In this document: one piece after another, positions 1,090 to 26,762 of the stretch | How the letters are laid out: each line of letters begins with the position of its first letter | Position numbering within the stretch: position 1 is the first letter of the stretch | DNA from: an uncultured archaeon | GTDB taxonomy: Archaea; Asgardarchaeota; Jordiarchaeia; Jordiarchaeales; Jordiarchaeaceae | NCBI GenBank assembly: GCA_964510585.1 | Contig: CAZECW010000196.1 | Span: forward strand, 1 to 32,000 | DNA length: 32,000 nt | Direction of reading: 5' to 3' | Translations under genes and position numbers: made by a program | Notes under the pieces: model-generated | What the model was told of the DNA's origin: nothing | The model's input: the letters and a program-made list of their open reading frames with translations, nothing else | Databases searched by the model: none

Positions 1090-1306
1090 AATAGGTAACT
1101 CCTAGTTAATTGTGCAAAGAAAGCAACAAGAAAATATACAAGCTCAAATAGATATCACAAATAATCGGACGTATACTCGTTAGTTGCAGATATAAAATCT
1201 TGGGATATGTTTAATTTGCCTTTCTGCTTATTGATAATTGTAACTTATTGTTTTTTTAGTGGATTACGGTATTTATTTCCTCCGCAGGAAGATAAGGCGA
1301 TTGGTG

Positions 1307-1822
1307 ATGCCCACAAAAAACGTCGAAAATTTAGACAGACTGCCCGAGCTTCTAAGCTCGATTAGCAAAATAATCAATGATTTGACCGAAGCTTTTAGTA
1401 TAATATTGGGTGAGATTAATAATCGGCTTAAAGATATAGAGACTAAACACTTGGAGCTTGAGGCGCACGTGAAAAAAGAGGATTCAAACTTAAAAGATAA
1501 TCTTAAAAAATTAAAAGAGGAGCAGGAGAACTTAAATAACAAAATGGAACAAGGCGCAGCGAGTTTCCAAGCATCAATTAGAAATCTTACTGATGTCCAG
1601 ACAAGCATTCAATCAAATCTAAACTCTCTTGAAATTTCCATTCAAAAAATGGATAGAAAATATGAGGATGTAAATAGACTGATGGAAAAACGCTTAATGG
1701 AAATTGTGGAGAATATTTCAAACGTTGTTCACCCAGTTGAGATCTGGAATAAGGAGATGAGCGTTATTAAGGCTGAAGTAGCCAGGCTGTCTCGTGAAAT
1801 AGAAAAAAAGATTATCCGGTGA
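1307..1822 (+). CDS. Coiled-coil hypothetical protein
   Basis: Start moved to ATG 1307 (preceded by GGTG). Heptad-like L/I pattern over most of its 171 aa. Ends 7 nt before the amidohydrolase start. Confidence 0.75.
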   Translation: MPTKNVENLDRLPELLSSISKIINDLTEAFSIILGEINNRLKDIETKHLELEAHVKKEDSNLKDNLKKLKEEQENLNNKMEQGAASFQASIRNLTDVQTSIQSNLNSLEISIQKMDRKYEDVNRLMEKRLMEIVENISNVVHPVEIWNKEMSVIKAEVARLSREIEKKIIR

Positions 1823-1829
1823 TTAGTAA

Positions 1830-3305
1830 ATGCTTGAGTTTGAGGATGTCGAATCAAAAACAATTTTTCGTTTTTACATTGTGGACGCCCATCACCACTT
1901 GGGTGCGGATATCGATGGTCACAGTAATAGAAACCCAGTTGCACCAGGAGGGACCTTCGACTTCTACGTTAAAGTGGGAAAGAAACTCTCAAAGTTATTT
2001 TCCGATAAACCCCATATTTTCAGATACAGCCCACATGGTTTTTTAAATGAATTTATTAGAAATAATAAGAAATGGAAGGACACCCTAAATGGGTCTTGGG
2101 CTGTAGACCAAGTTGTTGTGTTCCCTTTTAACGATGAATTCAAATGGAGGGAGGGGGACGAAGGCAAGGCGATTTACTGGCGTTCCAATGACAACATCGG
2201 AAGATGGGTTACCCGTGCCCCTTACTCTTTAAGATTAATTGGCTTTGGGAGAGTAGTTCCCACCCAGAGAGAACTAGCTATAAGTGAGCTACACAGAGCT
2301 GTAGAACAATTAGGTCTGAGAGGATTGAAACTACATCCCAGATCCGACGGTTGGAGTAGCGATATTGCATCCCCAGAAGTGAAAAATGTTCTCGTTGAAG
2401 CGGCAAAACTTAACATTCCAGTTCTCTTTGACACACGGGGATTTGGTCAAGTGATGGATATACTCGAAGTAACAAAAATGGCTAGAAGCGAACTCCAATC
2501 CCAAAATAAGGCTTTGGTGGAGAACCTAAAGGTAATTATAGCCCACATTGGATTCCACCTGGGACAAAATGAACTATTCGACGTGTTGAGTCACCCCAAC
2601 ATTTATGGTGATACCTCTGGGGTTCACGACACCGGAATCCCTAGATTATTCGAGGAGGCCGTGCAATTATTACAGCCCAATCTTGGAAAGTATAGAAGCT
2701 GGTCAGAAAAAATAATTTTTGGAACAGATTACAACTATTTCGACGTGCCACACGCGGTGCAGTTCATTTCCTTCGTGTTGGGTAATGATTTTCCAGGCAC
2801 TCCTGAAGACGCTCAACGCATACTCGGTTCTAACCTTTTGAAACTGGTTCCCCCCTTTAATAGGGAAACAAAGTCAACCTTCAGGAAAGTACATGTACCC
2901 TTCGAATTGGCGGAATTAACCGAAAAAACTTTAGCGAAACAAATTGCCGATCTGGTGAGTAGTGAAACATATGATCTTTCAAGCATTGATTTCTTCATAG
3001 ATCCGCATCCTAAATTTCAAGTTAGACCCCAAGACTTCAAGATAACCATTTCCCGAAGAGAAAATGAGAGCTGTGAAGACATAAATCTTATAGTACTCTC
3101 CATGCTTGATATATTAACTATAGCAAGATTAGACAACACACTGATGAACTCGTCACCCATAAAAAACAGAATACTTAGATATGATGATGCTGCCTCCCGC
3201 AGAAGCTTTTACAAAAAGCTATGGCCGAGCCACCTAGAAAACAATCCCCAGGAAATGCACGACTTCATAAAATCGATTACTGAAATTGAGAGTTCAAAAC
3301 AATAA
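1830..3305 (+). CDS. Amidohydrolase_2-type TIM-barrel metallohydrolase with a ~140-aa C-terminal extension
   Basis: Motifs DAHHH, RGLKLHP, IIAHIG, IYGDTSG and KIIFGTDY. Confidence 0.88.
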   Translation: MLEFEDVESKTIFRFYIVDAHHHLGADIDGHSNRNPVAPGGTFDFYVKVGKKLSKLFSDKPHIFRYSPHGFLNEFIRNNKKWKDTLNGSWAVDQVVVFPFNDEFKWREGDEGKAIYWRSNDNIGRWVTRAPYSLRLIGFGRVVPTQRELAISELHRAVEQLGLRGLKLHPRSDGWSSDIASPEVKNVLVEAAKLNIPVLFDTRGFGQVMDILEVTKMARSELQSQNKALVENLKVIIAHIGFHLGQNELFDVLSHPNIYGDTSGVHDTGIPRLFEEAVQLLQPNLGKYRSWSEKIIFGTDYNYFDVPHAVQFISFVLGNDFPGTPEDAQRILGSNLLKLVPPFNRETKSTFRKVHVPFELAELTEKTLAKQIADLVSSETYDLSSIDFFIDPHPKFQVRPQDFKITISRRENESCEDINLIVLSMLDILTIARLDNTLMNSSPIKNRILRYDDAASRRSFYKKLWPSHLENNPQEMHDFIKSITEIESSKQ

Positions 3306-8000: not shown

Positions 8001-8574
8001 AAAACGCCCTCAATAAATTATAGACATGAATACGTAGCTTGGGGTCGGGGACACCAATGTGGTGGTGGTCTCCGAAACTGAGTCCCTGCTGGTAATCCAT
8101 AAGAGGGTTTAAACCCGTTGTGACAACCTTAACACCTGGAGGGAGTGCATCATGAGACAGTTTAACAAGAGTGTGCGCCCACCAAGTCAACTCCTCGAAG
8201 GTGTCGCAGGGCGGAGTTGCTACCTCCAAAATCCAAGTTATGGCTGTCATATGGGGGTCTTTCCCCATAATTTCCACATCTATCTGTTTCCCATCTGGAA
8301 GCTTGTAGCTACATATTAGTGTGTCTCCTCTTTTTTGCACCTGTTCCACTCTTACGTTTGAAACCTTTCTGCTAATGTAGGTTGTTATGGGATCCTGTGG
8401 TTTCTTTAGAATGTTTTTTAGGTTTTTGGCTGCTTCTTCCACGATTTTGCCCATGATGCTAACCATTTTTTCGCCGTCAATCCACGTTCCTTTAAGGTTT
8501 ACAATCTGGATTTCCATCTCTATGCCGTGTGTGAACGGCATCTTCAACAATTGTAGGTTGTTCTGGGTTGGCAT
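5008..8574 (-). CDS. YbdK/GCS2-family carboxylate-amine ligase fused to ~700 aa of repeated beta-sandwich (Ig-like) domains
   Basis: Motifs THGIEMEIQIVN, LEVATPPC, TGLNP, FGDHHHIG, LPHLIALSVNSPF and DMFPFTSFGTVEVRVFDSQ. The tail has alternating beta patterns such as VFEGQPVTCRLFLENKG and LAPGAMHNLMVQIANR. GGAGG lies upstream of the ATG. Confidence 0.88.
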   Translation of the reverse strand: MPTQNNLQLLKMPFTHGIEMEIQIVNLKGTWIDGEKMVSIMGKIVEEAAKNLKNILKKPQDPITTYISRKVSNVRVEQVQKRGDTLICSYKLPDGKQIDVEIMGKDPHMTAITWILEVATPPCDTFEELTWWAHTLVKLSHDALPPGVKVVTTGLNPLMDYQQGLSFGDHHHIGVPDPKLRIHVYNLLRAFLPHLIALSVNSPFVEGKPTDIVQIKDGKLHAPGCVRSIRLERNIKQLGPDDAQHYIPYVESYDEKKFESVVGRVPARMCDMFPFTSFGTVEVRVFDSQISLIRRIALAALIQALALKAKKIFEKGEKIPNVDSETLIKNRRSAIRWGLMGPFFKQKEIDSFLKDYPEFSKFYYYENPEEGTEFLRRMHEAVKNMILYIKDELEEMGILRSEYLKPIMLTIYGDLSGSFPTPLTTADYQLLKFVELKANMERLSRELQIIADQSCADVWSDPIHGTPNLQEIFPVTASMEIQIKPEVVFEGQPVTCRLFLENKGKKPLENISIESLVYDSLGEERLRETFVVDRLEPAEKRVGEIEFETIMGVPQYILKSELKVGTETIAIERTSIQAYHVTCKSNLIAQVDGVIVTGATEVPYAVFIENATPLDMNLTLKVSIVDIDQGQTFYSISSEGQPWGEKLKNMRAKEQELFVAMSEEMSKLQWAKDALEAQQEGSWNEIPPLVLHPRMAKSSFLSPQCSIVAQVIDQDGKIISESRSPAFRVFFQTPEVSLEVKKEPNKIYQIGEPIEISFSVDATRIASTDPVSVVVKLKSTTRKEFEMVLKEETINPTKKAIITTSWKATEDVLNNLRSDIMKVGIELYQGGSLLEYEELPHKFKLVKGPPIEIEWLNVPEKAFINMPISGGLKIGKIRESEKPLILNVEALINDQPHMITTRSIDSVQSETLIEINPIIVPQGTEHFCLRATLIKNGKNILESTREVPVINIGRAVEVVFQNLPKQLAPGAMHNLMVQIANRIDDKISFDLNCEGEIEGEKIFREDIPIHLKPNETLLAQVGIKIPTYITDNECTINLQLSQNGIVGWVNRKKIKVYSDKPRFRVGYSSKPPLAEYVMFQGEKMEFSITPIVQSFIDYDINARIVFAIFDKKTKEVIAQEKKTIMLPRGKPIRPLDQPIVWEIQRPKELKTYYLGTMIFDLEKPDEPKEIPNKLVLNSLVEVTIVPEA

Positions 8575-8590
8575 TTTCTAATACCCTCCA

Positions 8591-9376
8591 CTAGGTGAAT
8601 TCTTTTTCGGCTATTTCACTAAAAGCTTGAATCAAATTGCGAATCTTGTCTGCTTCTACAATGTCGCTGGTAATAGTTAAGTCCAAGATGGAAACATCAA
8701 TATTTGCTGATTCCGCTATAACTTTTAAGCAGTAGGTGAGACTTCCCCCACCAAATACTCTGTCATCATCTATTATTTTATAACTTTCATTTAGCAATCC
8801 CTTAAGTTTACCGATAATATTGTGAGGATCTCTCCGAATATTTTTGTCGACAAAAATTTTACTTCCACCAGAGGGTAACATGGGAAGCGTTCTCAAATTA
8901 ACTATGATTCCCCCCTTACCCTTAGAGCTGCTAACCTTATCTACAAATAGCAGTTGAACAATTCTTGCTATGTTCTCGCTTACTTCCAATCTTCCTTCAG
9001 GGTCTGAAAAGAAAAAATATGAGAAAGGCTTACTCATACTCTCAAATTCCTGGTAAATCTTCTGAATAATGTCAAACAGCACTTCGTCGTCCTCTCCGTA
9101 GGAGGTGGAGCATACTGCAAAAGGAATTCCCACATTTTCAGTTTCGGAAACAGGACTTATTCTACCATAATTCTTGAAACTTTCCAACTCTTCCGTTACT
9201 AAGATCCTATCTACTGCCTTTTCTAAAAACGGAAAAACTTCCGTTTTATAGTTCGTAATCAACAAAACCGCCTCGTCCAGGGCAACCTTATATCTCTTTA
9301 ACAATTCCAAGAATTCCTCAGTTACTCGTTCAAACCTGCTAGTAATTTTCCCTGTTTCATTTTGGGTTTCCAACAT
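8591..9376 (-). CDS. Hypothetical protein; possibly a degenerate N-formylglutamate amidohydrolase / Zn-exopeptidase fold
   Basis: The ORF is clear. The motif order PFAVCSTSYG .. GIIVNLRT .. VFGGGSLTY .. ILDLTI parallels FGase PHxG .. IDxHS .. PYxGGxxT .. QIEI, but without the His/Glu ligands. Confidence 0.6.
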   Translation of the reverse strand: MLETQNETGKITSRFERVTEEFLELLKRYKVALDEAVLLITNYKTEVFPFLEKAVDRILVTEELESFKNYGRISPVSETENVGIPFAVCSTSYGEDDEVLFDIIQKIYQEFESMSKPFSYFFFSDPEGRLEVSENIARIVQLLFVDKVSSSKGKGGIIVNLRTLPMLPSGGSKIFVDKNIRRDPHNIIGKLKGLLNESYKIIDDDRVFGGGSLTYCLKVIAESANIDVSILDLTITSDIVEADKIRNLIQAFSEIAEKEFT

Positions 9377-22631: not shown

Positions 22632-22966
22632 TTTCTATAAATACTAGGGCGCCTGGTCAGGAGTAGCTTATAGCTTTCGGGTGTTTAAATTTTCCTTTAT
22701 TTGCTATAAAAACATGTTTTCGTTCTTTGTCTAAGAAGCGCAGCTTATGTACGTTTTTAAATTTTTATGGATTTCCCTTGTATAAGCATTTTTCATTTGA
22801 AATTTAATTTTCTCACCAAAATGAACATTTGCGGGTTTTGATATTTATTTTCTTTAATGTTTTTAAAAAATATTATTTGTTTTATACTATTTTTATATTT
22901 AATTCCCTAAATCCTTATTAGTCCAGTTTATAATTCTTATATTAAACATGTAATCTGTTTCAGGTT

Positions 22967-23251
22967 GTGTTAGAAGTGACGGCGGGAGAGTATAAATTGG
23001 TACTCTACAAGTCTCAAAGAACACCTAAATATAACCAGGTTTTAAACAACATTAAGAAAAGTCTGGAAAATCTGAAATTAGATCTCGAGATTGAGGAGGT
23101 AGATTTAGATAAAAATCCTGAGAGAGCCTTAAGAGATGGGGTATTAACAACGCCAACACTGGATCTTGTAGGTTTAAATTGGAGATTTATTGGGGTACCA
23201 ACTGTGGATGAGCTTACAGAGATTTTAGAAGACATCAAAAAGCGGAGGTAA
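22967..23251 (+). CDS. KaiB-like thioredoxin-fold protein without CxxC
   Basis: LVLYKSQRTPK and EVDLDKNPERALRDGVLTTPTL align by eye with KaiB LKLYVAGxTP and [22 protein letters not shown]. Confidence 0.8.
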   Translation: MLEVTAGEYKLVLYKSQRTPKYNQVLNNIKKSLENLKLDLEIEEVDLDKNPERALRDGVLTTPTLDLVGLNWRFIGVPTVDELTEILEDIKKRR

Positions 23252-23259
23252 AAACAATC

Positions 23260-24054
23260 ATGGGTGATAGAGGTAGCCCCCGCCGTGATACTCTTCTGGG
23301 GGAGCTTCGGAGAAGGACAAAAATGTTTGAGGGTGAATCAGAGTTGGGTGAAAGGACGCCCACAGGCATTAAGGGGTTCGACGAGATGGTTCAAGGAGGA
23401 CTGCTACGGGGCGAAACTTACATAGTTACTGGTATTTCTGGTGCTGGGAAATCCATTTTCTCACTGGAGTTTTTGTACAGAGGAGCTTCTCAATTTGATG
23501 AACCAGGACTGTATGTAACCTTTGAGGAAACCATGCAGAGTTTGCTTCGCAATGGCAAAAACTTTGGATGGAACCTGCCTGAGCTTATTAGGCAGAAGAG
23601 GCTACTAATCGCAGATTTTACACTTATGACTGTGGGTGATAGAGCTCTATCTTTGAATCCTGAAGCCTTCAACCTTGATGGCTTGTATGTTACGCTCGAA
23701 GCCGCTGTGAGAGAGTTGGGGATAAAGAGAGTTGTTCTTGATTCCGTATCTGTGCTATTCTTACAATATCCCAATACTGGTGTGATACGCAGAGAACTGA
23801 ATATTATCTCCAGCATGCTGCGAAAGAACAAGTGTACCTCCATATTTGTAACTGAGACTGGTAGCGAACCAAGTGCTATCACTCGTTTTGGGGTGGAAGA
23901 ATATCTAGCAAATGGAGTTATAGTACTATACTGGGAAGCTGAAGGTGATAAAAGGAATAGGTATATTGAAGTTTTCAAGATGAGGGGCACAGCTCACTAT
24001 ATGGGTAGGAGGAGACTTTCCATCACCAACGATGGCATTAGCGTAATCTACTAG
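23260..24054 (+). CDS. Single-domain KaiC-like ATPase, catalytically intact, resembling the KaiC CI domain
   Basis: Walker A GISGAGKS, YVTFEE, VVLDS, ITRFGVEEYLANGVIVL and arginine-finger FKMRGT. Confidence 0.92.
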   Translation: MGDRGSPRRDTLLGELRRRTKMFEGESELGERTPTGIKGFDEMVQGGLLRGETYIVTGISGAGKSIFSLEFLYRGASQFDEPGLYVTFEETMQSLLRNGKNFGWNLPELIRQKRLLIADFTLMTVGDRALSLNPEAFNLDGLYVTLEAAVRELGIKRVVLDSVSVLFLQYPNTGVIRRELNIISSMLRKNKCTSIFVTETGSEPSAITRFGVEEYLANGVIVLYWEAEGDKRNRYIEVFKMRGTAHYMGRRRLSITNDGISVIY

Positions 24055-24062
24055 GAGACATT

Positions 24063-25235
24063 GTGCCCATGTTAAAAACAAACATTCCCTTTTTTGACAA
24101 AAAAATTGGAGGAATTCCGGAAAGCAAAAAAATCGTGTTCATGGTAGCGCCAGAAATAGACCCCTCAATAATAGGTCTGCATTTCGCAAAGGTAGGTTTG
24201 GACAATGGATACCGTATAATGTATGTGGTTAACAACAAGTTTCCCGACGCTGTGAGGAAAAAGGCCAAAGCCTTGGGTTGGGCAACTGACCCTTTTGAGA
24301 AAGAAGGCTCCTTCATCTTAGTAGATGCCTACTGCGGATACAGTGGTATAGATAGTAAAGAAAAGTTTGTCACAAATCCCTACGATGCTGAGGAAACCCG
24401 AGAAAAATTATCCCAGTTATCATCTGCAAAAACCGTTGTGATCTTTGACTCAATAAGTAGCTTCATAGATATGCATGGGAATGGAGTAGAAGAGATTCTG
24501 AATCTAATTGGTTGCCTTCGTGAAGCCATTGTTATTGGACTCTTCTCCCTATGGACGTACCAGCCAGAGCAAGTTGGTAAGATCAACGAATTTTTTGAAG
24601 GTGTTTTCGAAATTAAACCCAGTAAAAAGCTCTTCTACATTAGGGAATCCCTTTACATAAAAAAGGTGACATGGACTAATAATGCAGGTTTTGAAATTCC
24701 AGTAAGGATACTAATTCCTGGGGGATTAAGAGTATACATACCAAAAATTGTAGTGACCGGAGCCTACCACGCGGGAAAAACAACCTTCCTCCATGCAGTA
24801 GCCGATGAAGCGATAAGCGTAGATCGTATGGGAACAACGGTAGCTCTCGACTATGGAAAATTGGATTATCGAGGGTTCTACATAGAATTCTTTGGAACCC
24901 CTGGCCAGCCACAGTTTGATCCTCTGGTGGAAATGATAGCTAGGGAAGCCATGGGATTAATTCTAATAGTGGATAGTAGTGATGTGGGAACTTTTGAGAG
25001 AGCCAGAATCCTTTTTGAGAAGTGCGGAGGTTACAACTTACCCTCCGTAATAGCGGCAAACAAGCAGGATCTCAAAGAAGCCCTACCTCCTCTAAGTGTT
25101 CAGGAGAAGTTGGCTCTTCCCTTAAGAATACCGGTGATAGGTTGCAGTGCGAAGACCAAAAATAACTTAACTCTGGTGATTGATGTTCTCCTCGATATCA
25201 TTTTGTTTGGAGGAATTAGAATTGAGAATGGGTGA
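24063..25235 (+). CDS. Degenerate KaiC/RecA-fold domain fused to a C-terminal small (MglA/Ras-like) GTPase
   Basis: The N-terminal domain starts LKTNIPFFDKKIGG but has APEIDPS in place of Walker A. The C-terminal domain has GAYHAGKTT, TTVALDYG, FGTPGQ, ANKQD and CSAK. Confidence 0.9.
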   Translation: MPMLKTNIPFFDKKIGGIPESKKIVFMVAPEIDPSIIGLHFAKVGLDNGYRIMYVVNNKFPDAVRKKAKALGWATDPFEKEGSFILVDAYCGYSGIDSKEKFVTNPYDAEETREKLSQLSSAKTVVIFDSISSFIDMHGNGVEEILNLIGCLREAIVIGLFSLWTYQPEQVGKINEFFEGVFEIKPSKKLFYIRESLYIKKVTWTNNAGFEIPVRILIPGGLRVYIPKIVVTGAYHAGKTTFLHAVADEAISVDRMGTTVALDYGKLDYRGFYIEFFGTPGQPQFDPLVEMIAREAMGLILIVDSSDVGTFERARILFEKCGGYNLPSVIAANKQDLKEALPPLSVQEKLALPLRIPVIGCSAKTKNNLTLVIDVLLDIILFGGIRIENG

Positions 25236-25590
25236 CACAGGAGAGTTGGATAGGGTTTTGGCCAGCTTACAAAACATTTCAGATGTGGATGGCGCTGCTG
25301 TAGTAACCAGAAATGGTATACTGATAACTAGCAGCCTTCCACAGGACGTCGATGGACAAAAATTTGCGGCTATGGCTGCGTCTTTAGTTGGTGCGTCGGA
25401 AACAGTGGCAGCTTTACTAAAGTCATTCATGAAAAGAGCAATAATAGAAGTGGAAAGGGGGAAATTGCTAGCCTTAGGTGCAGGACCCAAAGCGATTCTT
25501 ATTGTATTACTCAATGATAGGGCGGATGTCGAAAGTCTATTAAGAGAAATAGAACCTCGCCGAAAAGACATTATGAAAATATTTAAATAA
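25228..25590 (+). CDS. Roadblock/LC7 (MglB-like) protein
   Basis: Motifs VDGAAVVTRNGILI, FAAMAASLVGASE and AIIEVERGKLL; overlaps the GTPase stop by 8 nt. Confidence 0.92.
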   Translation: MGDTGELDRVLASLQNISDVDGAAVVTRNGILITSSLPQDVDGQKFAAMAASLVGASETVAALLKSFMKRAIIEVERGKLLALGAGPKAILIVLLNDRADVESLLREIEPRRKDIMKIFK

Positions 25591-25721
25591 TCACTAAATT
25601 TTATTTTACAAAACTCAAGTTTACTAACAAAAGATTAACTTTTTAATTTATAGAGTATTGCTATCTTGTTGCGGAGCTTAAGAAATAATTGGAAGGGCTT
25701 TATTGGAAGGAGTGACTTTAC

Positions 25722-26447
25722 TTGTCAGAGCGGGAAAAAGAAAAGAGAATACCCACAGGAATACGGGGCTTAGATGAATTGCTAAATAGTGGTTTGCGTC
25801 CGGGTTCTCTCTGCATAATTATGGGTGAGCCGCTCTGCGGAAAAGAGGTTCTAGCGAAGGAATTCTTTTATCGGGGTCTCGAGAGGGGAGAGGCGGGTAT
25901 TTATGTTACTACGAATAATTTTGCTGAAGACATATTTAGTGAAATGGAAGATTTCGGCTGGTCTCTAATTCCTTATGGTGACGAGGAAAAAGTTGCATAC
26001 AAAATAATTGATACCTATACTCAAACAGTGAACCCCCATGTGGAAGACACAAAAACAGTCATGTATGTTCCTGCCGCAACTGACTTAGCGGGACTAAGCT
26101 CAAAAATAGTGGAAGCAATAACTATTTTGACTGAGAATTTTAAAAGGCTGAGAATGGTCTTAGACTCCCTATCAAGCATCATTACTTTTACCACCGATGC
26201 TGCTGCCATTAGGTTTCTCTCCTTCCTCAAAGCGCGAATACGGCTGGTTAAGGGATTATTTGTTGCCCTTCTAGAATCCGAACTAACTGAGAAGAGTGTA
26301 ATGATGCAAATATTGCAACTAGCAGACGTTATAATCGAAATTAAAGGTAACAAGCTACACGTGAGGCAAAGCGGAAAAGCGGCGACAATGGGAGAATTTA
26401 AAATAACCGAGAAAGGAATGGAAATACGCCTAGCAAAGTCAGAGTAA
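25722..26447 (+). CDS. Single-domain KaiC/RAD55-like protein with degenerate catalytic motifs
   Basis: RIPTGIRGLDELL and GEPLCGKE (Walker A S/T replaced by E). YVTTNN lacks the catalytic EE, and there is no KxRG finger. Confidence 0.85.
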   Translation: MSEREKEKRIPTGIRGLDELLNSGLRPGSLCIIMGEPLCGKEVLAKEFFYRGLERGEAGIYVTTNNFAEDIFSEMEDFGWSLIPYGDEEKVAYKIIDTYTQTVNPHVEDTKTVMYVPAATDLAGLSSKIVEAITILTENFKRLRMVLDSLSSIITFTTDAAAIRFLSFLKARIRLVKGLFVALLESELTEKSVMMQILQLADVIIEIKGNKLHVRQSGKAATMGEFKITEKGMEIRLAKSE

Positions 26448-26762
26448 ACCGCTCACCATATAACTATTCTAATTTTAAACCAAGAATTGGTAAACACCAA
26501 AATTGAAACAATTAATACCCTGATTTGTTCCTATTTCACTCTGTTCACAAGATTACGGCTGATACTATATGATGTATTCCAGAGGGAAAACAATGATTCT
26601 CCAAAAAAGGCGGGTGGTAGCTGGGAATGTGAACCAAGAACTCGTAGAATCTAACTTGGGAAATGTGAAAAAATCATTAATTTTTTAGTGAAATTTAGAA
26701 TAGAAAAAAAATATAATGAACCAGACTAATATTCTAATATGATTATTTGTGGAGGAAGAACT

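Follow-up and report, generated by a model that had tools for sequence, protein, structure and literature searches.

What is the function of a KaiB-like protein and a KaiC-type ATPase that are encoded, in an archaeon, in one operon with a small GTPase? This question is raised by five genes (g1-g5) located at positions 22967-26447 of a 32,000-nucleotide (nt) stretch of contig CAZECW010000196.1 (positions 1 to 32,000; hereafter the window), which comes from an uncultured Asgard archaeon of the order Jordarchaeales (assembly GCA_964510585.1). An earlier note on this DNA had described five same-strand genes encoding a KaiB-like protein, an active KaiC, an inactivated KaiC fused to a small GTPase, a Roadblock protein and a second inactivated KaiC. 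Inspection of the open reading frames (ORFs), Pfam scores and sequence motifs bore out this description: all five ORFs are carried by the + strand where the note had placed them, and each domain call checked out. As the best explanation of these data, we propose with moderate confidence that the operon is the Jordarchaeales version of an archaea-wide module built of a GTPase and dead KaiC proteins, and that it acts as a fast sensor-switch of the energy or nucleotide state, not as an oscillator. What is new is its front end, a KaiB-like protein with a CI-only KaiC, which is strictly linked in one Asgard order to a GTPase trio, i.e. the fusion of an inactivated KaiC with the GTPase (iKaiC::GTPase), the Roadblock protein and a degenerate KaiC. 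No description of the fusion, the trio or the operon was found in the searched full-text literature.

The closest homologues are named Jordarchaeia or Freyarchaeia (Asgard archaea), and the DNA itself was found in hot-spring metagenome runs of six studies, possibly including the one from which it stems. The iKaiC::GTPase fusion was detected in 11 of 301 sampled Asgard genomes (six candidates were scored per genome), all belonging to one order: five out of five in each of two families, plus the window's own genome. None of the 290 sampled genomes from 28 other families yielded it. The survey of operon conservation proposed in the earlier note gave a uniform picture, with g1-g5 found in the same order in all 10 other sampled Jordarchaeales genomes (one cut by a contig end) and g1 always directly preceding the KaiC gene g2; because the same genes recur in the same order, the arrangement is not due to chance. 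Between the families, the proteins share 34-64% amino acid (aa) identity overall (about 57% for g1, 63% for g2, 47% for g3, 34% for g4 and 48% for g5).

The gene g2 (23260-24054, + strand) encodes an intact single-domain KaiC of the CI type (264 aa), designated KaiC1. The protein scores 223 bits against the Pfam KaiC model and retains an intact CI-type catalytic site, with Walker A (GISGAGKS), the catalytic EE pair (within FEET) and Walker B (VVLDS) in place, as well as KMRGT. When compared with KaiC structures, it matched the CI half with 183-186 bits and the CII half with 51-61 bits, and a manual count over one alignment block gave roughly 45-48% identity to the CI half of cyanobacterial-type KaiC. 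KaiC1 comprises one RecA-like domain; it has no CII and hence no CII phosphosites, and its score against the circadian KaiC models (TIGR02655/PRK09302) was 226.7 bits, below the cut-off of 408 and covering only profile positions 11-239. Orthologues sharing at least 59% identity were found in Jordarchaeales only, the next single-domain KaiCs in the database being at most 41% identical, and identity to the active KaiCs of the trio loci in other phyla was about 29-33%. Judged by bit scores alone, KaiC1 is nearer to the CI of true KaiC than to any other single-domain KaiC found. Because it is closer to CI than to other single-domain KaiCs, its sequence suggests, but does not prove, that g1 and g2 arose from a pair of the kaiBC type through loss of CII. 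P0182 and P0184, single-domain KaiCs sharing about 40% identity with KaiC1, have no KaiB-like neighbour, and a 95-aa ORF considered as a KaiB-like candidate upstream in another locus (L042) was rejected, as it encodes the terminal part of an unrelated protein. Among the about 19 KaiC-family ORFs of the window's own genome (96% complete), none was seen to encode a double-domain KaiC.

Directly upstream lies g1 (22967-23251, + strand; alternative start GTG at 22976), a gene present in a single copy in its own genome, which encodes a KaiB-like, Cys-free protein of the thioredoxin fold (94 aa). In Pfam, the protein scores 26.0 bits against KaiB (PF07689; cut-off 27; residues 9-67 aligned) and 25.1 bits against Thioredoxin_3 (cut-off 24.8), and it is placed below the NCBIfam cut-offs for KaiB (TIGR02654, circ_KaiB, 19.4 vs 145.3; NF006798, 19.6 vs 110). 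A phmmer search of the PDB aligned its N-terminal two thirds with Rhodobacter KaiB (8fwj_M; 1.5e-5) and its full length with the M. jannaschii thioredoxin MJ0307 (1fo5; 1.5e-5). The C-terminal third aligns with MJ0307-type thioredoxins and not with KaiB, and this thioredoxin-like character argues against a switch to the KaiB ground-state fold (b-a-b-b-a-a-b). The CxxC active site of redox thioredoxins is absent, since none of the 94 residues is Cys and the corresponding position is occupied by RTPKY, which is invariant across 10 orthologues.

The AlphaFold2 model of g1 (predicted local distance difference test, pLDDT, 82.6) has the topology b-a-b-a-b-b-a, which is that of the thioredoxin-like, KaiC-binding "fold-switched" state of KaiB (fsKaiB) (PMC11665890); g1 thus has the thioredoxin-derived fold devoid of Cys that is expected of a KaiB, modelled in this KaiC-binding state. 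A Foldseek search with the model, whose result cannot tell the fsKaiB fold from thioredoxin, returned ordinary thioredoxins as top matches (template modelling, TM, score ~0.7), with no KaiB or SasA chain among the 50 matches listed. The g1 product can best be characterised as a thioredoxin-fold protein that is redox-dead and bears KaiB hallmarks, and the model indicates that it is probably locked in the binding-competent fold.

Proteins of this type are rare. A search of 5.8 billion proteins gave 19 homologues of g1, of which those with a taxon name were assigned to Jordarchaeia or Freyarchaeia, except for one labelled Lokiarchaeia; some orthologues carry the source name "thioredoxin family protein". 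A profile search of 1.84 billion representatives returned only 20 matches at E <= 0.001, comprising true KaiBs, thioredoxins with a CxxC motif and a small number of proteins without Cys. Outside the order, g1 has its nearest relative in P0140, which is likewise Cys-free and is encoded directly upstream of a 497-aa double-domain KaiC, so that the tie of the g1 family to KaiC reaches beyond Jordarchaeales. Another Cys-free relative (P0142) is encoded on a contig of 714 nt without usable context.

Modelling of g1 together with g2 as a complex gave a score of 0.67, compared with 0.02 for the best control; of the solved complexes, 51 of 78 attain the 0.67 mark, as do 2 of 108 mismatched pairs. At least 92% of the contacts are common to the three runs, with a partner pLDDT of 82 or more. 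On g2, the modelled interface is formed by residues 118-148, which align with the KaiC segment DASPDPEGQEVVGGFDLSALIERIN. This segment comprises the B-loop of KaiC CI together with the following helix, the site at which KaiB and SasA bind. The model supports binding of g1 at the B-loop-equivalent region of g2, in agreement with the KaiB-KaiC interaction that the earlier note had predicted.

The third gene, g3, most likely starts with the ATG at 24069, which yields a protein of 388 aa, as in its homologues. Its N-terminal domain (24069-24740, + strand) is an inactivated KaiC-like domain (iKaiC; 60 bits against Pfam KaiC), in which the P-loop position reads APEIDPS and the catalytic EE is replaced by NN. 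In 108 aligned homologues of the fusion, both Walker A and EE are lost without exception (NN is found in about half of them), and because the P-loop is missing from all 108, its loss is a trait of the family and not a local decay. In the AlphaFold model of g3 (pLDDT 89.8; predicted TM score 0.84), the N-terminal domain superimposes on PH0284, a single-domain KaiC-like protein, with a TM score of 0.81.

The C-terminal domain of g3 (24741-25235, + strand) is a small GTPase matched by the Arf, Ras and small_GTP models, with the motifs G1 (GAYHAGKT), G2 (GTTVAL), G3 (GTPGQ, within FFGTPGQ), G4 (NKQD) and G5 (SAK). G1 (as GxxxxGKT), the TT of G2, GTPGQ and NKQD are conserved across the homologues; the TT pair and the Gly-Gln of G3 are invariant in an alignment of 38 sequences, and GTPGQ shows few variants over the 108 homologues. 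The combination of GTPGQ in G3 and TT in G2, at the place of the Arg finger of group 1, defines groups 2-5 of the MglA family; the archaeal group 4 and CvnD, the GTPase of actinobacterial conservons, belong to these groups (PMC4316618). In a plain sequence search the nearest solved structures were those of Arl and Rab, not MglA. Nevertheless, the sequence fits the MglA family better, a placement preferred because of the Asp-to-Gly change in G3 and the coupled Roadblock gene. The g3 GTPase departs from the single-domain architecture of MglA groups 2-5, as it forms the C-terminal domain of a fusion protein, and shares with them the coupled Roadblock gene, since g4 overlaps the stop codon of g3. 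The GTPase, regarded as eukaryote-like in the earlier note, is in fact marked by the GTPGQ/TT signature of these prokaryotic groups.

The Roadblock gene, g4 (25228-25590, + strand), encodes a Roadblock/LC7 protein of the MglB/CvnB-like type (120 aa; 56.8 bits against Pfam Robl_LC7). Its start is most likely the ATG at 25228, which is preceded by GGAGGA and results in an 8-nt overlap with the g3 stop. Among PDB entries, the protein matched the Roadblock chain 9jue_D (1.5e-11) and cvnB5 (3leq; 5.8e-9), and MglB weakly. The last gene, g5 (25722-26447, + strand), encodes KaiC3 (241 aa), a KaiC of the DUF7504 type whose P-loop is degenerate (90 bits against Pfam KaiC and 45 bits against DUF7504). 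Its P-loop, GEPLCGKE, retains GxxxxGK but carries Glu at the Ser/Thr position, and NN replaces EE. From these residues, g5 probably cannot hydrolyse ATP, while nucleotide binding may survive; because the P-loop Lys is kept, "dead" is used for g5 in the sense of unable to hydrolyse. Both g5 and the N-terminal domain of g3 have the features of inactivated KaiCs.

The three proteins encoded by g3-g5 have counterparts in other phyla. Homologues of the fusion sharing 29-39% identity were found outside Asgard archaea under the names Bathyarchaeota, Methanobacterium, Thermoplasmata and Euryarchaeota, and in a metagenome-assembled genome of Methanomassiliicoccales. In the six gene neighbourhoods from outside the order that were examined, the fusion was accompanied in each case by a relative of g5 (24-48% identity to g5; taken as its orthologue), and in five of them an annotated Roadblock gene adjoins the fusion, an unannotated gene of 122 aa being found there in the sixth (L025). 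The order of the trio genes differs among the loci (Bathyarchaeota, Methanobacterium, metagenome contigs). Four of the six loci, as well as that of the sister Jordarchaeales family, contain additional KaiC-family genes (one or two each), of which some retain an intact P-loop, and in four of the six the trio is adjoined by a sensor gene, encoding (i) a multi-PAS protein, (ii) a V4R protein or (iii) a histidine kinase with a receiver. Moreover, two proteins of about 526-530 aa (P0118 and P0119) combine iKaiC, GTPase and Roadblock in one chain. The existence of these three-domain fusions is strong genomic evidence that the three components work together, and it upholds the link between GTPase and Roadblock made in the earlier note. 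Clustered as they are here, g3, g4 and g5 are the Jordarchaeales copy of a trio found across archaea. In Jordarchaeales, the KaiB-like/KaiC pair takes the place upstream of the trio that is held elsewhere by sensor genes.

Given this context, the simplest reading of the g1-g2 pair is that it provides the input of the module, sensing ATP/ADP or a factor that alters KaiC1 activity, because a sensor gene adjoins the trio in four of the six other-lineage loci. The intact motifs of KaiC1 and its homology to hexameric CI and to PH0186 lead us to expect that it forms a CI-like ring and hydrolyses ATP. The g1 protein, fixed in the thioredoxin fold, would bind the B-loop region of this ring, as modelled, and by analogy with Rhodobacter and cyanobacterial KaiB it may prefer the post-hydrolysis, ADP state. 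Rhodobacter KaiB binds the ADP state of CI, speeds its ATPase and splits isolated CI rings into monomers (PMC10076222), and because of this last activity g1 could by analogy remodel the single-tier ring of g2. Through KaiC-type interfaces, g3 and g5 may dock on, or intercalate into, the KaiC1 assembly with their dead KaiC folds. In this way the state of KaiC1 could set the GTP/GDP state of the tethered g3 GTPase, as MglA/MglB and the three-domain fusions would suggest. A dimer of the Roadblock protein g4 would run the GTPase cycle, acting as a GTPase-activating protein and/or a guanine nucleotide exchange factor, and the GTP-bound GTPase would engage effectors.

Several observations weigh against this sensor-switch reading. 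The KaiB score of g1 falls just below the Pfam cut-off, and its model retrieves ordinary thioredoxins. The good score of the g1-g2 complex may stem from the likeness of the pair to KaiB-CI complexes that have already been solved; the model shows that the pair resembles KaiB-KaiC, not that g1 binds g2. Two of the other-lineage loci (L024 and L025) contain the trio without a further KaiC gene and with no evident active KaiC, which means that the module can exist without an active KaiC. The signal may also run either from the ATPase to the GTPase or in reverse. Finally, because KaiC1 is not orthologous to the module KaiCs of other phyla, g1-g2 could form a separate unit that is merely co-transcribed.

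The last point leads to the alternative that the operon joins two independent units on one transcript, a reduced kaiBC (g1 and KaiC1) and the trio, which are not physically coupled. It is in line with the restriction of g1 and KaiC1 orthologues to Jordarchaeales, as against the far wider distribution of the trio, with the trios of L024 and L025 that can do without an active KaiC, and with the position of KaiC1, nearer to the CI of true KaiC than to the module KaiCs elsewhere. However, order and adjacency are invariant in all 10 other Jordarchaeales genomes of two families, with tight or overlapping junctions, and at least one further KaiC-family gene belongs to the cluster in four of the six other-lineage trio loci. 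Furthermore, within the RecA/KaiC superfamily, KaiC-fold domains typically oligomerise with one another. We regard two uncoupled units as quite possible, though not probable. A further reading, in which a CII-less KaiB-KaiC(CI) pair, its KaiB relative being locked in the thioredoxin fold, is built into a mixed ring with two dead KaiC subunits, one of them bearing the MglA-type GTPase, appears somewhat improbable to us; the hetero-hexameric ring with a GTPase as its output, put forward in the earlier note, is pure inference. It is unlikely that the operon regulates cell polarity or surface structures (type IV pili, archaellum) in the manner of MglA/MglB, with the KaiCs participating as in ArlH-type control, even though MglA/MglB is the closest characterised GTPase-Roadblock pair (PMC4316618) and KaiC and Roadblock genes have been reported near archaeal pilus loci (PMC4858521). 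The trio of L025 does adjoin pilin and T2SSE genes, and in L042 a KaiC1-like gene and a DUF7504 KaiC gene precede T2SSE/T2SSF. Nevertheless, no Pfam pilus or archaellum family was found in the four neighbouring ORFs, the only ones beside the operon that were scanned in the window, or at the sister-family locus, and the neighbours differ from lineage to lineage.

A true timer, be it an hourglass or an oscillator, paced by CI-type ATP hydrolysis as the earlier note envisaged, would draw on the strong CI-likeness of g2 and on the predicted binding of g1 to it, as in cyanobacteria the CI ATPase sets the pace of the clock and KaiB binds the post-hydrolysis state (PMC10076222). Nonetheless, a clock is very unlikely here, because CII, the phosphosites and KaiA are lacking and g1 is apparently fixed in one fold. 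With CII, the KaiA-binding tail is also absent, and no double-domain KaiC was seen among the KaiC-family ORFs of the genome. The C-terminal half of g1 is thioredoxin-like and the protein is modelled as a single stable, constitutive fold, so that the delay provided by fold-switching would be missing. The DNA is moreover of hot-spring metagenome origin and comes from an Asgard host; to our knowledge, Asgard archaea are not phototrophs. A survey of 11,264 genomes, finally, reported no KaiB without a full-length KaiC, and encountered KaiB in just four genera of archaea (PMC5520375). It is barely conceivable that g1 has nothing to do with KaiC and is simply a redox thioredoxin or glutaredoxin. Its above-threshold Thioredoxin_3 score, the thioredoxins heading the Foldseek matches (TM about 0.7) and the name given to some orthologues would fit this view. 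Opposed to it are the absence of Cys, with RTPKY invariant in orthologues at the CxxC position, the unfailing location directly before KaiC1, the P0140 relative that precedes a double-domain KaiC, and the g1-g2 binding model with its clean controls.

Compared with the characterised KaiB-KaiC systems, i.e. the hourglass of Rhodobacter sphaeroides (8FWJ) and the fsKaiB-CI complexes of Thermosynechococcus (5JWO, 5JWQ), the Jordarchaeales pair shows (i) a g2 that aligns to CI, (ii) a g1 whose N-terminal two thirds align with KaiB, the TPK and TPTL motifs included, (iii) a modelled interface at the B-loop-aligned segment and (iv) the gene order kaiB-like then kaiC-like, with an 8-nt spacer. It differs in that g2 is single-domain, without CII, S/T phosphosites and A-loop, in the lack of KaiA, and in the thioredoxin-like C-terminal half of g1 (RFIGVPT), without the segment that refolds in KaiB. 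A constitutive thioredoxin-like, KaiC-binding fold is known from the SasA N-terminal domain and Legionella KaiB (PMC11665890), and the g1 model has the same topology; unlike these, g1 is free-standing, archaeal and paired with a single-domain KaiC, and the likeness noted is that of the modelled fold.

The GTPase-Roadblock part resembles MglA/MglB and the conservon proteins CvnB/CvnD in the GTPGQ of G3, the TT of G2 and the paired Roadblock protein g4, which has a DG pair of the kind described (PMC4316618) and matches cvnB5, but it is distinguished by the fusion of the GTPase to a dead KaiC domain and by sharing its operon with genes for KaiC proteins. In their 2014 survey of MglA, Wuichet and Sogaard-Andersen described single-domain GTPases, with no conserved neighbours for the archaeal group 4 (PMC4316618). 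With respect to the trio elsewhere in archaea, the present locus is peculiar in that a KaiB-like protein and a CI-type active KaiC, a pair found only in Jordarchaeales, precede it instead of PAS, V4R or two-component sensors. The trio falls within the concept of "KaiC-like ATPases as signal transduction hubs" that is reportedly due to Makarova, Galperin and Koonin (2017). Archaeal KaiC hubs that include inactivated KaiC domains have already been published as a concept (PMC4858521; PMC5847659). The view that KaiB partners are uncommon in archaea, expressed in the earlier note, needs correction, as KaiB-like partners of archaeal KaiC were noted before: KaiC proteins of arCOG01174 are often linked to a KaiB-like protein of the thioredoxin family (PMC4858521).

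The pair encoded by g1 and g2 is a natural combination of a CI-only KaiC with a KaiB-like protein, and as such it runs counter to the survey in which KaiB accompanied only full-length KaiC (PMC5520375). The g1 protein fits the idea that the ancestors of KaiB were plain thioredoxin-fold proteins (PMC11665890). If the mixed ring were to exist, ATP hydrolysis and the binding of a KaiB-like protein on one subunit would gate a G-protein switch on another. A clock-type ATPase would then be seen for the first time to be directly coupled to small-GTPase signalling, and an extant organism would exemplify the pre-fold-switch state that has been proposed for the ancestors of KaiB. More generally, the trio may be a widespread archaeal signalling device, whose input is usually a sensor. 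The operon offers a defined handle on it (ATP/ADP and a KaiB-like protein) for reconstitution in vitro, because the biochemistry of the cyanobacterial and Rhodobacter pairs is well understood. The special link to eukaryote-like small-GTPase signalling suggested in the earlier note was not upheld, with the trio distributed archaea-wide and the fusion restricted to a single order among the sampled Asgard genomes. The module tells little about the origin of eukaryotes, because its GTPase is of the prokaryotic MglA type and the fusion was found in 0 of the 290 other sampled Asgard genomes.

The operon is preceded by an AT-rich intergenic region of 335 nt (22632-22966; GC content 0.35 in that kilobase), which from its sequence is likely to be the promoter region. 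The genes within it are closely spaced, with 8 nt between g1 and g2, 14 nt between g2 and g3 and the 8-nt overlap of g3 and g4, up to the AT-rich spacer of 131 nt (25591-25721) that separates g4 from g5, which may contain an internal promoter. This spacer differs between strains and comprises only 22 nt in the sister Jordarchaeales family. In contigs of relatives about 94% identical to the window, 59 nt of it (25623-25683) are swapped for 65 unrelated letters, with the coding flanks kept; the g4-g5 spacer is a hot spot of variation. Contigs of a relative of about the same identity (~94%), found in RNA-Seq run X20, cover parts of all five genes. They carry no information on transcription, strand or operon structure, their uncovered parts being uninformative, and give a weak hint that g1-g5 are expressed. 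Two runs labelled as metatranscriptomic whole-genome shotgun (X14 and X17) are probably DNA.

Within the upstream region, a sequence of ~65 nt (22696-22760) was found to be repeated in at least 16 copies, 95-100% identical, on other contigs of the same genome. In metagenome contigs of relatives, its depth is far above that of its flanks, and the flanking sequences are many and varied. It looks like a dispersed short repeat, either resembling a miniature inverted-repeat transposable element or representing a shared intergenic element. Folding of the repeat gave no signal of RNA structure (z = 0.29), and Rfam and tRNA scans of the window gave no matches. Downstream of g5 are located two small ORFs, one (26739-26909) encoding 56 aa with a CxxC...CxxC zinc-ribbon pattern and a weak match to DUF7837, the other (26970-27212) encoding 80 aa with no family match; neither has a counterpart after the operon in the sister family. 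At the sister-family locus (L018), stand-alone small GTPase genes with Arf/Ras/Roc matches are found within 3 kb downstream of the five-gene operon (8147-8677, 176 aa; 9469-9984, 171 aa), which are absent at the matching position of the window.

The genome from which the window comes contains about 19 KaiC-family ORFs in total and 16 Roadblock matches. On another of its contigs (C117; L039, positions 270-2767), one strand carries a second cluster of unfused genes, which encode a KaiC of 268 aa with intact motifs (233 bits), a Roadblock-like protein of 196 aa and a eukaryote-like small GTPase of the Ras/Rab type (176 aa; 181 bits against Pfam Ras), so that this genome brings together KaiC, Roadblock and a small GTPase at two places, the operon and L039. 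On contig C149 (L040, positions 1214-2946, minus strand), a winged-helix-KaiC fusion (297 aa) adjoins a Roadblock protein of 140 aa.

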